DNA from: Ruditapes philippinarum
Lineage: Eukaryota
Assembly (NCBI RefSeq): GCF_026571515.1
Contig: NW_026862878.1
Span: 1-64,000 of the forward strand
Direction of reading: 5' to 3'
DNA length: 64,000 nt
This document shows, piece after piece, positions 47,882 to 55,723 of this stretch. Position 1 is the stretch's first letter, and every line of letters starts with the position of its first letter. The translations under genes and the position numbers were made by a program. The notes under the pieces are model-generated. The model was given only the letters and a program-made list of their open reading frames with translations, did not search any database and had not been told where the DNA came from.

Positions 47882-48129
47882 AATTTACATTCATTTTTAG
47901 GGGGAAGGGGGGGGGGGGTGTTGTTACGACGCAACAATACAGTGAAGGTTGTATGTCGAATTCCAGCTTTACTGGTGAAGGGAGCAATTCCAATATGACA
48001 TTCAAATCACACGAGATCTTAAATCTGATACTTGTGTTTGCTATTGTTGTTATTATAAAAAAATTTATAACAGAGTGTTATATAGAAAAACCTTTTTTCC
48101 CAAACCCCAATTACTTTAAATGGCCTAGA

Positions 48130-49950
48130 CTGTGAAAAAGATAGGATATATCGTTTTGCTTATGTCGGTCTGTCTTCTGGTCTGTCTGTCGGTAGACCAC
48201 ATGATTTCCGCTGATTATCTTAGAAACTACTTATCACGAAGTCTTGATATTCCACACCCAGATTTTGGGGTCACTTGGTGAGAGGTCAAGGTCACAGTGG
48301 CCTCGAACATTAGAATAGTTTCCGCTCATTATCATGTAAACTTTCACAAAGTCTTAATATTTCATATGTTGATTGGTCATATATAGTAAATGACCCATGT
48401 TGATTTTGGGGTCAGTAATTCAAAGGCCAAGGTCACAGATGCCAATGTCAGAATAGCTTCCGCTTGAAAATTAGTTATCATAAGTTATTCATATTATTCA
48501 TATTGATTGTGATTGGTCTTATGTAGTAGATGACCCCTTTTGATTTTGGGGTCAGCCGGGTCACTAGTTCAAAGGTCATGGTCACAGGTGCATTAAATGT
48601 CAGAATGGTTTCCGATCGTTATCGTGAAAACTAATTATAACAAAGTCTTCACATTTCACATATTGATTGGTCATACTAGGAAGAAGATGAACTTTATTGA
48701 TTTTGGTGTCACTATTACAAAGGTCAAGATCACTGGGACCTTTAAATGTCAGAATGGTTTCTGCTCATTGTCTTGAAAACTATTTATCACAAAGTTTTCA
48801 TATCTCACGTATTGATTGGTCATATGTAGTTAATGACCCCTATATATTTTGAAGTCTCTAGTTTAAAGGTCAAAGGGACTAAATATATTAATTAAATCGA
48901 AGGTCAAGCTATTGCTCATTCAAAATGCTCGAACCCGTTGCTTTTTACAGTCATGAAACTTAACGTTGGTCATTATATTTTTATTTCTTTATTGATTGTC
49001 TTCATACGTGGATACAGCAACTCTTAGGAAAATACCTTTACGTACACAAGACTGAACTTGACCTTGACTCATTAATGAAGTTCTTGACTCATTAAAGACT
49101 TTGACCTTCAAGGTCAAGTGCTTGAATTTTGCTTGATTTTCACTATAATTTCATAACTTTGTTATTTATAAATGGATTGTCTTCATATTTGACTAAACAA
49201 TCTTTTGGGCAAGTCCTTAAAATAAATCAGATTGATTATTATCTTCACGCATCAACACGCATCAATGGCTTTGACCTTGAAAGTCAAAATAAATAATTTT
49301 GCTTGATTTTTGTTATAATTGGCTTTAACTTTGTAAGTAATGAATTGATTTATTCAGACTTATGCATAACAATCCTTATGACAAGACATTGAAGAAGGTT
49401 AAATTGAACTTGAACTTAATTTGACTTTGACACTAAATGTCAAATTATTGAAATTAGCTACAATTGGGCATAACATTGTTATTTATTTATGTATTTAATA
49501 TATACCGTGACTTTATGTTGATTTTTTAAATATGATTTTAACCTTAATTTAAATGTCCTTAAATTGTATAGCTGTATTGAAATATTTACAGATTTGATTC
49601 ATACTTGAAGAAACAAGCACATATGACAAAACCACAATGTTGAATTATTCTGATATTATGTCCTTGAACTTTAATTGGCATTGACTGTCAGAGTCAAATT
49701 ATTGAAATTTGCTGACAATTTTCCTTTTTTTATTTAGTCATTGATTTTGATACATCTTGGACAAAAGAGCACTTATGAAACAATTGACATCATAATTAAT
49801 TCAGTTGCAACCTTGACCAATGATCGTCAAGGTCAAATATAAGATAAAAAATTTTATTTGATACAAAAATTATTTTTGAAGTAGTACACTTAACTTTAAT
49901 ATTCTTTCTCTGATGTGTTTAATTTTTGAAATACGAAAAAGTCGAGCGTG
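48130..49950 (+). mobile_element. Helentron-associated (HINE/pearl-like) element(s) with internal ~120-130 bp tandem repeats
   Basis: (GTCT/GTCG)n head at 48164-48192, then repeats of ATTTTGGGGTCA...AAGGTCAAGGTCAC...AGAATGGTTTCCGCTCATT, then degenerate TGACCTT-rich units. Confidence 0.65.
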
Positions 49951-50107: not shown

Positions 50108-53100
50108 ATGGCAAGTAGGCAAAGTAAAGAAGATGTTACTGACTGGCGGAAAAATTCAATGAGACATAACCATTCTTTTCAAAGGGAACAAACTATACCG
50201 ACAGAGAAGAATGTAAGAGGAGAGAAGAATGAACAGCCGTACAATAGGTCCGGAAAAGACACAAATGGCAGTGAAAGAGAAGATCAGCGAGGGAGAAGTA
50301 GTACAAAATCAACTCAAAGACATGATGAGGCTTTTCACGGTAGACAAAATGTGCCTAAGAAACACCAGGCTAAGAGAACAATCCTGTATGTTGTAACAGG
50401 TGACAAAGTAACTGAGAACAGAAACTTAAAAAGCTTTTTATTGTCTAGAATGGGCAACCCGAGAGAACTTGACTTTTTAGTGACAAAGGTCACAAATATC
50501 AAAAAAGATGGTAGAATAAAAAACGTTATCTACCTGGAGTTTGAAAGTTTTAACAAAGCTTCTCTTGGAAAACATTTACTCCATAAAAGTAATAGAAACG
50601 TACCAAATAAGCTTATTTGCTCCTTGGATAGGACAGAAGCGGAAGGAGAAGTTGTTGACACTGCTAAACAAAGACAGGAACAAATCGACAAAGCACACAA
50701 GGAAATTGTTGAACGAGCTGAATCTTTCATCGAGAGGCATGATGCGAAAATAAATGAAATTCGTGACAAACTCACTGACATTGATGCACAGCTTAGAAAT
50801 AAAAGCGGGGTTTCCCTTCCCGAGTTCGATAAACTAAGCAATGAAAAGTCTGCTTTTGAAGATAAGTTGGAAGAGTTTGCAAGACAGAGAAAAGAGTTTA
50901 ATAGATACATGCAATGTATGAAAGACAAGATGCAATCTCTCTTAAATTGTGACAAATTTGAGAAAGAATTGCAAGAGGTGAGAACAGCTTTTGGTGTTGA
51001 GTGTAGACGGTTTTCAACATCTTTACCTATGTACGCAAGACGTGAAGACATCCTTAATACGATCAAGGAAAACCAGGTGTGTGTGATACTCGGTGAGACT
51101 GGTTCAGGCAAGTCGACTCAGATGGTCCAGTATTTATATCAATCTGGGTTTGCAGGTAAATATAACCATATGAACCATATTACTAACGATCATCAATATT
51201 ATTGGTATAATTATATATACGTATAAATTCAAATACAACACTTCATAAGTATTAAGTTTTTTTAATGATGAACAGCAGCAAGAGAAGTATATGGACATAA
51301 TGTAATTTTCTTTGCGTCACGAAATGTGAATATTATGTTTGGTGACAAAGATTAAAAACGTTGAAGCTGTTCTCAATGAGTTAAGCACATTGTCTTATCT
51401 TCACATGCACGTTTTTCATTATTATAATTATGTTATAGAAAATATTGTACTTACCAGAACCAGTTTTGTACTTTTTTTATCTCTTTAGCAAAAGGACTCA
51501 TTGCCTGTACCCAACCTAGAAAAATAGCTGCAGTCAGTCTTGCGACACATGTTTCTGCAGAACTAGCATCGAGAGTTGGTCAGATTGTTGGTTATAAAGT
51601 TGGAATGCAAAAGAAATTGACAACGATAACAAAGGTTATGTATATGACTGATCACATACTTCTAAATGAATGCTTAGCTGATAGGGTTTTAAAACAGTAC
51701 TCGTGTATCTTAATCGATGAAGCGCACGAACGGAGTATTTACACTGATTTGCTTCTTGGTATGCTAAAGCAAGCTTTAAAGGAAAGACCAGAACTTAAAG
51801 TTATCATAACATCCGCTACGATAGAGCCAGATATATTTGTAAAATACTTTGGTGGAAAAGATCTTTGTCCTGTCCTAAAAGTCTCTGGGAGAGCATTTCC
51901 GGTAGATGTATATTGGGAATATGACTACTTTTCAGAAAGAGCCTTTCCGGAAGATTATGAATCAAAAGCTCTAAACAAGGCGATTGAAATTCATAATTCA
52001 ACAGCTATAGATGCAGGAGATATTCTTGTTTTTCTTACTGCTGTAGCTGAAATAGAAAGATGTGCAGAGAAATTATCTGAACGAGGAGATACTAATGTTC
52101 ATTGCCTGCAACTTCATGGTAGACTTAAACCAGAAGAGCAACAACTTGTCTTTGAAAAAACACCTAGAGGAAAGCGGAAGATTGTTTTTGCTACTAACAG
52201 TGCTGAAACATCTATTACAATTCCAGGCATAAAGTTTGTGGTGGATACAGGAGTTGTCAAGGAGATGAGATTTAACCCAAAGAAAAACATGAATTCGTTG
52301 AATGTCGTATCAGTCAGTAAAAGCTCAGCAAATCAACGTAAAGGACGTGCTGGGAGAACAACATCTGGCATTTGTTATAGATTGTACTCAGAAGAAGAGT
52401 ACAGTAATATGGAAACAACATCATGTCCTGAAATACTTAGAATACAAGTGTCACAGGCTTTACTTAAATTGTTAGAACTAGGGGTAGATCCAATGAAATT
52501 TGACTACGTCCAATCACCGTCACACGAAACAATGAAATCAGCCATGGACGAGTTGATGAGTATCGGAGCAACAAATAAAGCAGGCATAACAGAGCTTGGT
52601 AAATGGATTGCAAAATTGCCACTTGAGCCAAAACTCGGCTTACTTATAAAGAAAGGAATTGAATCTGATATTGTAAATGAAGCTCTCGTAGTTGCTTCTT
52701 GTTGTAATCAAAGTGGAATATTTTACCGTGTCGGAACACTGGAGGAGAAACGAGCAGCCGATTTAAAGAAGATGAAATTTTGTCATAAAGGAGGAGACTT
52801 ACTTACAATGCTGAATGTGTTTAGAGAATGGAACAAAATACCAGAAAAAGGGAAAGGCAGTTGGTGCGACAGCAACAGTATAAATGGAAAGGCAATAAAA
52901 GGGGTTCGAGATACGACAAACGAAATTTCATCAATACTTAAAAAAGATTTAGGTATTAAGATTAAGTATGAATTTAAGCAGCCTGAAAAAGTAGATCCAC
53001 AAATACAACGTTTAATATTTGACATTATGGTCGCAAATATTGGCTATTTCTTGGGACATGAAGGCGCTGGATATCTTATTGTAAACCGAAACCAGCGCGT

Positions 53101-55723
53101 GATGCTGCATCCTTCGTGCGCTATTTTAGCTTTAGGTCTCCAACCAAGCTGGGTGGTATTTAACAAAGTTCTGAAAACCTCTGAAGATTTTATGACAGAA
53201 GTAACACCAGTGTCAGACAAGGCTATAACAGACGCTATAGAAAGTCGAATTCTTAATGTCAATTTAACTGCTCTTGAAAGTCTGAGGTTGAAGCTAGCAC
53301 TGAAATTACCTGTTGGAAAACATGTTAAATGGAAGTTTGTTGGTCCACTCCATAAAAACCGCAGAAAGGTTGAAGAAGATATTTCAAAAGAATGTGATGA
53401 ATCTTTAGTCGTTGTTGAAGCAAATAACAGACGGGGAGATGTCAGTTTATTTTGTTTGTCACAATATGTTGAAAAGGCATCGGCACTGCTGAGGTCTGTC
53501 ATTGAACCAATGCCAGAACTTTTACGATATGAGTCAAGGGAAGAGCATATTGGAGATGAAAGAAGTGGTTTTAGAGCCGTTTTGAGGGAGGGAGGACGTG
53601 TTGTAGAAGTGCTCATGCCAAATGAATACCGATCCCTCAAAATAATTCTAAAGGAGTGCAATTTTAGAACTAAAATTGATGAAGGTAGCATTAGAAAACT
53701 GTTAATGCCTTACGGACCAATTGAACAGATTTGGAGACAAACTGGAAACAAACAGGGCAATAATCAGTTTTGGGGAAAAGTGACATTCACTCACCAAAAT
53801 GATGCTGTTGCTGCATTTCAACATGTTAATAATGACAGAAATGCCAAAATAAAGCTAGAACCAAATACATTTCAGAATACACTTGCTCAGCAAGGTTTTA
53901 CAATGAAACTGACGTGGTGCCGTCGGCCCTCCAAAGGACACTGCTTCGTCACAACAAATCGGCCTGAAGATCGCCCGATTCTTTTAATGTCGTCGCCAAA
54001 GGTCAACGGTGTCCCTGTTAGTATTTCTTTAAGCAAACAACAGTCAGATCTGTTTATAAAATATTTGCCTGCAGATGTCACTGATGAAAGTGTCAAAACA
54101 GCTCTAGGAGAAGTACTAGGCATATCCACCAACGCTTGCCAAGACCGGTTTCGTGTTGTTATCCCACGTACGAATGTAATTTGGAATGCAAATGAAAGGA
54201 CTAGGCAACAAGATGAATTGTATAGAGTTGTATCAAAGTTTGCAGACAGGGAATCTTTTCGGTTACATGTAAGGGAATATAGGCAACAAGCAGCTATTTG
54301 TGTAGCTTTCGTAACTTTTTCAGACCCACAATTATGCAATGATACTGCAATGAAATTGATTCAAAGTCAGGAAAAATGCGAGGGAAAAAAGATACAGGTC
54401 AGTTTGGAATGCAAAGCATCTTTGCACATCAAGAAGGGACTTTATGAACTTGTAAAAGACGATTTTCAAGGATTAATTGATGAGCATACGCATGCACATT
54501 CAAGTACGGTCTTAGACCTTAAAACATTGAAGTCGGGCCATTTTTCACTCGAAATAAGAGCTGATTCTCCATTAGAGCTTGCACAAGCTAAACTTAAGTT
54601 CCAAAATGTAATTGGTGGAGATACACTTTGTTGGGAAAGCACAAAAAACATTAAAGTAATGTTCACTAAAAATGGAAAGCAAAGGGCACAAGAGATTGAA
54701 AAAGAAACGAAGGCCATGATAATAGTTGATGAGAGAGACATGACAGTTACAATACAAGGTCTGATTTCAAATAGAAGGAGGGCTACTTCATTTATTGAAG
54801 AATATATGAAAATTCACTCTGGTACTGAAGAAACGGTAATACGTCTAAAAGGGGAAGACAATCCACCTGGTTTGATGAAAGTTTTATTAATGAAATATGG
54901 GATAACCTTTGATGACTTCAAAAAGGAAACCGATGTGTCAGGGGTAGAACTTAACTTGAGACTTCATGAAATCGCTATATCTGGGAGAAGTGAAGCCATT
55001 GGAAAAGCTCTTCAGCTCGTGAATAGCTTAAAAGAAGAATTGATAAAAAAGGAAGAGGGAAGAAAACACATAAATGACTTACCAGACTGTCCTATATGTT
55101 TATGTCCCGTTAAAGAATCTGACATTTGTAGTCTTGAGTATTGCGGTCATGCATACTGTAAAGTATGTTTGAAGTCATACATACGTCATGCTGTTACTGG
55201 TCGACAGCTTCCTGTGTCTTGCGCTGCTGAGAATTGCAACAAGCTACTCGTGATTAGAGATATTAATACACAAGTCAAAATGGGATCCATCAAGAGAAAA
55301 GATCTTCTAGATTCAGCTTTGTCATGCTTTGTTAATACACGAAGTAAGGATTTTCGTTTTTGTATAACACCGGACTGTGGTATGGTGTACAGAGTTACTA
55401 AAAATGGAAAGTTATTCTTTTGTCCGACATGTCGTATAAAGATTTGTACCACTTGTCATATTCCATATCACGAGGGTCTGACATGTTCAATGTATAACGT
55501 CGCCAGAAAAGAGGGAGACTCTATGCTCGAATGGATGAAAGAGGATCCTTCAAATAGAAAAGTATGCCCAAAATGCAACTATGGAATCGAAAAAACGGGC
55601 GGATGCAACCATATGCAATGTTCAATGTGTAGAGCAAACATCTGTTGGTCGTGTATGACATTCTTTTCAGAAGTAGGTGATTACATGAAGCATGTAGATT
55701 CTGTCCATGGTAACTTTGTATAA
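50108..55723 (+). CDS. DEAH-box RNA helicase - RRM/KH-like - RBR E3 ubiquitin ligase fusion (DEAH11/DEAH12-like): join(50108..51155,51489..55723), 1760 aa
   Basis: Helicase motifs GETGSGKST, TQPRKIAA, DEAH, SAT, ATNSAETSITI and QRKGRAGR, then HA2/OB-like region and RNP-like strands (GKVTF, LFIKYL, AFVTF). RING1 CPIC..CGHAYCKVC..C..C; IBR CITPDC..CPTC..C..C..H..C; RING2 CPKC..IEKTGGCNHMQC. Phase-1 intron GCAG|gtaaat...tttag|CA joins the two ORFs in frame. Confidence 0.92.

Follow-up and report, generated by a model that had tools for sequence, protein, structure and literature searches.

The first 64,000 nucleotides of contig NW_026862878.1 of the clam Ruditapes philippinarum (NCBI RefSeq assembly GCF_026571515.1; this whole stretch is called the window hereafter) carry at 50108-55723, on the + strand, a gene that joins a DEAH helicase core of superfamily 2 (SF2), an array of KH- and RRM-like domains and a RING1-IBR-RING2 (RBR) ubiquitin ligase in one predicted chain. 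Judged by its sequence, the gene is a member of the Helicase (Plant I) RBR subfamily of the DEAH11/12 type, which has been catalogued since at least 2010 without a known function in animals. We propose, with about even confidence, that the clam protein works as an inducible antiviral RNA clamp coupled to an RBR ligase, in a manner like that of ZNFX1 and without kinship to it. An immune role of the helicase-RBR family in animals appears probable, and a direct gating of the ligase by RNA, argued from analogy, is a possibility against which we lean slightly. What is new is that this family is tied to a conserved antiviral response and that its helicase core has lost the hook-turn; in the open-access literature, a scope outside which Marin's animal RBR study falls, we found no title or abstract making the antiviral or the hook-turn point, and no main text discussing the induction.

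Three published data sets from two phyla show that the family rises with double-stranded RNA (dsRNA), herpesvirus or cyclic GMP-AMP (cGAMP). In the oyster table of Lafont 2020 (PMC7064767), poly(I:C) raised CGI_10010105 by log2 fold changes of 0.76, 1.49 and 1.40, and CGI_10021954 by 1.71, 2.44 and 2.07, at 0.5, 1 and 10 days, and ostreid herpesvirus 1 (OsHV-1) raised the two genes in unprimed oysters by 1.55 and 2.43 and by 1.91 and 2.77, respectively, with values of 0 to -0.78 in seawater controls and of -0.5 to 0.3 for DHX8. The same table files both genes, and DHX8 likewise, under an RLR/IFN-like label, and the InterPro entries given for both genes in a second oyster table are IBR, HA2, helicase-C and OB (PMC6971885). 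Similar results are tabulated for Nematostella, where NVE8902 (best-hit label Y4102_ARATH) rose by a log2 fold change of 2.82 (adjusted P 1e-39) at 24 h of poly(I:C), a setting in which RLRb rose by 3.3 and RLRa by 1.9 (PMC8476169). Likewise, the log2 fold change of the DEAH12-like Nematostella gene 116602118 was 4.84 under 2'3'-cGAMP, 1.88 under c-di-AMP, 1.17 under 3'3'-cGAMP and 2.88 in embryos, and ZNFX1 and RNF213 rose alongside it, while DHX8 (-1.76) and DHX15 (-1.37) fell (PMC8713801). NVE8902 and 116602118 are two names that possibly belong to one gene. No family rows were found in the seven files of an abalone haliotid herpesvirus 1 (HaHV-1) supplement, which held viral helicase rows only, and the four files (91 kb, data tables possibly absent) of the supplement to a Nematostella immune-cell paper gave no match.

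The induction data also bear on the idea that the protein is a general RNA quality-control ligase, which, in the way of the RBR ligase RNF14, would label proteins trapped on damaged RNA or on stalled ribosomes and would rise with infection only through RNA stress. The age of the family, which extends across plants, placozoans, nematodes, arthropods, molluscs and corals, would suit such a task, as would a clamp-like core that holds stalled substrates and the transcription of the window gene in runs of several studies without a known challenge. However, cGAMP and c-di-AMP are signals rather than RNA damage, the poly(I:C) induction persists for 10 days, and the family has evolved fast and duplicated repeatedly, so that we regard a quality-control task as quite unlikely.

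The clam gene (copy A of three, see below) had been read from sequence alone as encoding one intact protein of 1760 amino acids, and this stands: after removal of a 333-nt intron between two exons, the frame is open from the ATG at 50108 to the end at 55723 with no internal stops. Its features, all on the + strand, are given below, with counts that refer to a family alignment of 122 rows (119 database rows and the three clam copies).

50108..51155, + strand: exon 1, 349 codons plus one base, with a low-complexity N-terminus, a conserved segment of about 70 residues without Pfam match, a helical or coiled stretch and the start of RecA1
51092..51118, + strand: Walker A (motif I), GETGSGKST, from the sequence motif
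51156..51488, + strand: intron, 333 nt, GT..AG, phase 1, at the same position in paralogues B and C
51489..55723, + strand: exon 2, 4235 nt, with the remaining helicase core, the KH/RRM array, the RBR and the stop
51602..51607, + strand: hook-turn position, Gly388-Met389 (Arg-Phe in Prp22, Prp43 and DHX15), from the alignment
51647..51655, + strand: motif Ib, TDH (TDG in Prp22 and Prp43), from the alignment
51716..51727, + strand: motif II, DEAH, invariant (122/122 rows)
52334..52357, + strand: motif VI, QRKGRAGR (114/122 rows)
52625..53227, + strand: HA2 ratchet-like and OB-fold domains, from Pfam HA2_C and OB_NTP_bind and a match to Prp43/Prp22/DHX8
53291..53503, + strand: predicted KH-like domain 1, residues 951-1021, from the secondary-structure order in the models
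53627..54430, + strand: three predicted RRM-like domains, residues 1063-1330, from Pfam and models (RRM1 fold match Z 10.4, rmsd 2.2 over 72 residues)
54404..55057, + strand: predicted KH-like domains 2-4, residues 1322-1539, from Pfam KH_DEAH11 (E 2e-16), KH_DEAH11_2nd and KH_1
55088..55237, + strand: RING1, C3HC4 type, from Pfam and the alignment
55316..55486, + strand: IBR, from Pfam and the alignment
55565..55708, + strand: RING2 including a terminal CxxC...HxxxxH zinc site, from Pfam and the alignment
55604..55606, + strand: catalytic Cys1722, Cys in all 117 rows with a residue there, aligned with the Cys of ARIH1 GGCNHM

The window gene is transcribed and spliced, since contigs of runs X1 and X3 (for both of which RNA is a guess) join the two exons without the intron and the read depth in the intron bin is 0 in X24 (RNA on record), X3 and X8 and 2 in X1; these depths represent presence of transcript, not expression level. 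The previously noted exon of about 4.2 kb is indeed present, and its use as a pointer to an immune role was abandoned, as a long second exon is common to all three clam paralogues and thus uninformative on function. The catalytic Cys of GGCNHM, placed at 55604 by the sequence-only reading, proved to be residue 1722.

Mapping with Pfam, the alignment and AlphaFold bore out the helicase-KH/RRM-RBR layout, including all SF2 DEAH motifs and the full RING1-IBR-RING2. Pfam matches in exon 2 comprise Helicase_C, HA2_C, OB_NTP_bind, RRM_1, KH_DEAH11, KH_DEAH11_2nd, zf-RING_2, IBR and IBR_1, with PF24471 and RRM_1 above and PF24641 below the Pfam cut-off. AlphaFold models of residues 561-1760 (mean pLDDT 82; pTM 0.60, with RecA1 outside this 1200-residue model) and of residues 947-1540 (mean pLDDT 89) give a domain order after the OB fold of one KH-like, three RRM-like and three KH-like domains, followed by RING1, IBR and RING2, whose zinc ligands are present in order. 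In the RRM-like part, which has a conserved WCRRP motif, the second domain seems to be inserted into the third. The KH labels are based on secondary-structure order and Pfam; fold searches confirmed the core (DHX8, Prp22) and RRM1 and scarcely covered the other domains, and no canonical GxxG loop is present in the KH-like domains. No change was seen in motifs I, Ia, II, III, V and VI. The MTDH of motif Ib is not peculiar to this gene: TDH occurs in 110 of the 122 rows and also in the plant row P0265. DEAH and SAT are invariant in the 122 rows, and the His two places after the catalytic Cys is found in 83 of 117. Similarly, the C-terminal CxxC...HxxxxH is present, and its status as something special to the window gene was rejected; most likely it is the second zinc site of RING2 rather than a separate domain, with C1735 and C1738 aligning with RING2 of ARIH1 and the two His of HxxxxH presumably belonging to the same site, as in the zinc sites of other RBR proteins. 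N-terminal extensions across the family range from 0 to about 1000 residues and are polar with few hydrophobic residues. P0193 has additional N-terminal RRMs. In the coral protein P0184 (Oculina patagonica), residues ~60-320 contain what look like two copies of a TRADD-like_N match (26.4 bits against a cut-off of 23.7), placed at the N-terminus. That the N-terminal segment might be a repeat of the KH/RRM array was considered and dropped (hhalign probability 1.3%).

Compared with the spliceosomal DEAH helicases (Prp43/DHX15, Prp22/DHX8, Prp2, Prp16), the clam core has the same RecA1-RecA2-HA2-OB layout (fold match with E 1e-109 and 33% identity) and motifs I, Ia, II (DEAH), III (SAT), V and VI. 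It differs from them in the Gly-Met that replaces the RF hook-turn, in TDHILLNE (of the form TDHxLLNE) in place of TDGMLLRE and QRKGRAGR in place of QRAGRAGR of Prp22 and Prp43, in a much faster evolution, and in the added KH/RRM array and RBR. A hook-turn Arg was found in 2 of the 119 close rows and in 1 of the 77 distant rows with the RecA1 stretch, compared with RF in 7/7 housekeeping DEAH controls, and the plant rows of the family are likewise without an RF hook-turn. RF has been called a motif of all DEAH helicases, and in Prp43 its mutation to GG reportedly left RNA binding and ATP hydrolysis intact and abolished unwinding and the stimulation by RNA (Tauchert 2017, PMC5262380). Since the RF hook-turn is absent and the corresponding Prp43 mutant binds without unwinding, we infer that the core would act as a clamp or switch and not as an ordinary unwinding motor. 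Whichever role holds, the hook-turn loss leads one to expect a DEAH protein with a hold on RNA but no unwinding activity.

With the hook-turn required for RNA-stimulated ATPase activity in Prp43 gone, the protein could also be an immune-induced ligase without RNA sensing, whose activity depends on transcription or on an activating protein, whose RNA-binding parts only localise it, and which tunes signalling proteins. The KH-like domains without GxxG would fit this, KH-like domains of PARP14 and DTX3L are reported to bind proteins, and cotton DEAH12 is described as binding a transcription factor (PMC13407882). However, the ATPase motifs are nearly invariant family-wide, which implies that the nucleotide cycle matters, and all 122 rows keep the motif Ib and motif V Thr residues whose Prp43 counterparts contact RNA (PMC5262380). 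We consider a ligase without RNA sensing improbable and retain the clamp-ligase proposal.

The RNA-binding array shares with RBM43, PARP14 and DTX3L a series of tandem RRM-like and KH-like domains ahead of a catalytic domain, a likeness of layout that may or may not reflect kinship. The nearest Atlas clusters are RBM43-like (NID, RRM_PARP14_3, KH_I_RBM43), with scores of 0.76-0.78 that serve as a lead only; no PARP14-type Pfam match was obtained at E up to 1, and fold searches listed no solved PARP14 or DTX3L match, their listings being filled by generic RRMs matching RRM1. In a separate observation, differences between the window and other samples cluster at window 54146-54691 (RRM3-KH2), possibly representing a divergent allele of the array: run X8 has 23 differences over 927 bases at RRM3-KH2, compared with 12 over 1782 bases of the helicase core and 3 over 940 bases of the RBR, and 8 of the 18 listed codons of the RRM3-KH2 block change the residue (40 of 337 rows shown).

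RBR ligases normally rest in an autoinhibited off state, and in their mechanism RING1 takes E2~ubiquitin and the catalytic Cys of RING2 passes the ubiquitin on. The closest solved RBR structures are those of ARIH1 and ARIH2 (E 4e-16), with which RING1, IBR and RING2 of the clam protein align including GGCNHM; an RBR review names the ARIH1 catalytic Cys, and a search of its text gave no match for autoinhibition (PMC3305615). Unlike ARIH1 and ARIH2, the clam protein has no Ariadne domain after RING2 but terminates about 50 residues past the RING2 start. Because no domain follows RING2, any off switch would need to be supplied by parts N-terminal to it or by a partner.

The placement in the DEAH11/12 subfamily follows from the DEAH helicase and RBR supradomain in a single chain with DEAH11-type KH and RRM domains between them, and from the similarity to plant members over about 1200 residues (Marchantia P0243, E 1e-165, 31%; Juncus P0265, E 5e-145, 30%), with matches that span residues 2-1197 or more of the 1200-residue query. 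Arabidopsis DEAH11 (At4g01020 = DCS4) and DEAH12 share the domain order and the DEAH11-type KH families with the clam protein, and TDG and RF are absent in both. The clam gene, by contrast, belongs to a tandem set of three that already existed before Ruditapes and Mercenaria diverged. The known links also differ: for plant members they are to splicing and fibre growth, for animal relatives to a response to dsRNA, virus and cGAMP. Of 7986 candidates in the protein search, 1302 matched with E no higher than 1e-30, a number that may include other DEAH helicases. Most of the best 120 are relatives over the full length, found in molluscs, a brachiopod, a nemertean, crustaceans and corals. When the search was run without word index, Trichoplax, a nematode, a spider, a crayfish, Marchantia and Juncus were added (20 of 120 new rows identified), and a second targeted search for non-animal relatives gave 45 rows, the named members of which were all corals. 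The helicase-RBR fusion in an animal is already described: the Helicase or Plant I subfamily has been reported as ancient, present in unikonts and bikonts and with many losses in animals (Marin 2010, PMC2904391), and a clam DEAH12 fragment has been used as a nuclear marker (PMC8765752). Viral copies were looked for and dismissed, as 16 viral loci matched the first 275 query residues, that is, the helicase part, and by profile held no array, RBR or N-terminal segment. As a side observation, P0066, labelled as from the crab Petrolisthes manimaculis, was placed among scallop sequences and may be a contaminant or a weakly supported placement.

Three copies were found in the genome, all on the same contig, namely A (the window gene), B (65466-71071) and C (83641-90571), of which B is identical to P0007, a protein source-named Ruditapes philippinarum. 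In the trees, which are without named plant rows, each clam copy pairs with a different Mercenaria protein (support 100/100), and independent duplications are seen for mussels, oysters, abalones, limpets and corals. Since each copy has its own Mercenaria orthologue, the triplication is by this sequence evidence old and predates the split from Mercenaria. Synonymous sites between the paralogues are saturated (proportion of differing sites, pS, 0.75-0.79; nonsynonymous divergence, dN, 0.31-0.37), so that dN/dS is not estimable between them, and neither recent expansion nor positive selection was seen in this comparison. Identity to the Mercenaria orthologues is 73-88% in the RecA domains and 52-75% in the RRM/KH array; the array is the fastest-changing folded part. 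Over an 86-residue exon, the DHX15 of this genome shares 86% identity with a bat protein, compared with 54% to oyster and 58% to coral for the same stretch of gene A (54-63% when other molluscs, brachiopod, krill and coral are taken together, and a median of 61% across 121 rows). By this measure the family evolves much faster than DHX15, and the clam gene shows neither the slow evolution nor the single orthologue of the spliceosomal DEAH helicases. Downstream of the gene cluster, G000:C11365:128400-132400 (L023) contains frames that by eye resemble a Harbinger-type transposase and its DNA-binding partner.

The clamp-ligase proposal can be put as a series of steps. The gene is observed to be intact and spliced, with all ATPase motifs and the catalytic Cys. 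Its transcription would be raised by dsRNA, herpesvirus and cGAMP together with that of ZNFX1 and RNF213, as the published tables record for its relatives. As predicted from sequence, the core would then bind single-stranded RNA and ATP, without an RF hook-turn to allow Prp43-like translocation, and the KH/RRM array would add RNA or partner binding. E2~ubiquitin would load on RING1 and Cys1722 would hand the ubiquitin on, as in RBR chemistry generally. By analogy with ZNFX1, RNA loading might lift the off state, and ubiquitin might be placed on the enzyme itself, on RNA-bound proteins or on RNA, yielding a particle destined for sequestration or decay; the substrates, the clamp behaviour and the RNA gating are what we infer here. 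ZNFX1, which likewise has an RNA helicase and an E3 ligase in one chain and is induced in the same Nematostella cGAMP response, is described as a ligase stimulated by RNA and nucleotide that traps viral RNA (bioRxiv 10.1101/2025.09.05.674436). It is unlike the clam protein in having an SF1/UPF1-type helicase, a RING-like plus transthiolating module and a demonstrated activation by RNA (PMC13710534; bioRxiv 10.1101/2025.09.05.674436), whereas the clam protein has an SF2 DEAH core, an RBR and a possible activation by RNA, and lacks the SF1/UPF1-type helicase with NFX1 zinc fingers. Duplications in many lineages, repeated losses and the coral member with the TRADD-like match would be in line with an antiviral clamp-ligase. 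In its broadest form, which we advance tentatively and as rather less than an even prospect, the proposal would describe an ancient antiviral sensor-effector that cnidarians, molluscs and further invertebrates have in common and that humans, mice and flies have lost. In it, a DEAH core converted from an unwinding motor to an RNA clamp would gate an RBR as an independent second instance of the ZNFX1 logic, and paralogues with differing KH/RRM arrays would read different RNAs. If the ligase is RNA-gated, it would be a new type of RNA-activated ubiquitin ligase that shows a helicase switching an RBR, and the gene would be a candidate for antiviral defence in farmed bivalves.

Several observations weigh against an antiviral clamp-ligase. 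The induction evidence comes from oyster and Nematostella relatives and not from the clam gene, and these relatives were placed in the family by domain or name labels, not by sequence; Y4102_ARATH is presumably the old name of At4g01020. By comparison with Prp43, the hook-turn loss would remove the known route of RNA-stimulated ATPase activity, which argues against the usual coupling, and because plant members share this loss it does not single out immune proteins. The clam paralogues, three copies in all, are old, with no sign of a recent burst. Furthermore, cGAMP is reported to induce thousands of genes, and one resistant oyster family is tabulated with a lower basal level of CGI_10010105 than three susceptible families (mean log2 fold change -0.53; PMC6971885). 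Cotton DEAH12 has been described as binding a NAC transcription factor in fibre development, with a viable knock-out (PMC13407882). Finally, the one biochemical link of the family is to splicing, in plants: Arabidopsis DEAH11 is DCS4, identified as a dominant cop1-6 suppressor with Prp8, Slu7, CACTIN and a DDX41 homologue, and each DCS protein is reported to pull down dozens of spliceosome members, DCS4 co-precipitating with Prp8 (PMC11180117).

This link favours a spliceosome-associated regulator, which would hold on to pre-mRNA or snRNA with its core and ubiquitinate splicing factors through its RBR, and which animals would express more strongly in infection to retune splicing or handle nuclear viral transcripts. 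Besides the DCS4/DEAH11 genetics and the co-precipitation with Prp8 (PMC11180117), the core is nearest to Prp43, Prp22 and DHX8 among solved structures, the motif changes are common to plant members, and the induction data fit such a regulator too. However, DCS4 was called apparently plant-specific after a screen of fly, mouse, human, yeast and Neurospora that is reported to have found no orthologue (PMC11180117), and since the subfamily is also often lost (PMC2904391), it is no core splicing factor. In addition, the DEAH12-like gene moves opposite to DHX8 and DHX15 on cGAMP, and basic runs resembling nuclear signals are not above shuffles in the N-termini (28/94 versus a mean of 40), for which reason nuclear-signal enrichment was discarded. 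At the outset, a single-copy, slowly evolving, constitutively expressed and spliceosome-bound gene was taken to speak against an immune role; of these traits, spliceosome association is reported for the Arabidopsis member, and the clam has three copies of a fast-evolving gene. We consider the splicing regulator doubtful.

As for the immune role suggested by the sequence-only reading, it is supported in part by the response of relatives to dsRNA, virus and cGAMP, by the lineage duplications and by an evolution faster than that of DHX15, while the arguments originally given for it were weak. This includes the immune neighbourhood: four C1q-domain genes, at least 6.9 kb upstream of the window gene and on the opposite strand, are real, but C1q has 1233 first-look candidates in the genome (150 scored, all 150 passed) and is so abundant that closeness means little. 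These four genes are arranged in tandem at window 12353-43223 (- strand), each in two parts with a signal peptide and coiled coil followed by the globular C1q domain, with a spacing of 9.3-10.1 kb and 80-93% likeness in exon regions; in the fourth copy the signal-peptide start lies in another frame than the rest of the exon, which indicates a frameshift or an assembly error. Directly upstream of the helicase-RBR gene, window 48000-49700 is repeat-rich and thousands of reads align there partially, as for a high-copy element. Window 5400-8700 is of low complexity and very AT-rich (GC fraction 0.09 at 6001-8000) with six runs of N, resembling poor-quality assembly, and window 2208-4935 (- strand) contains exons of a major-facilitator transporter (Pfam MFS_1 matches).

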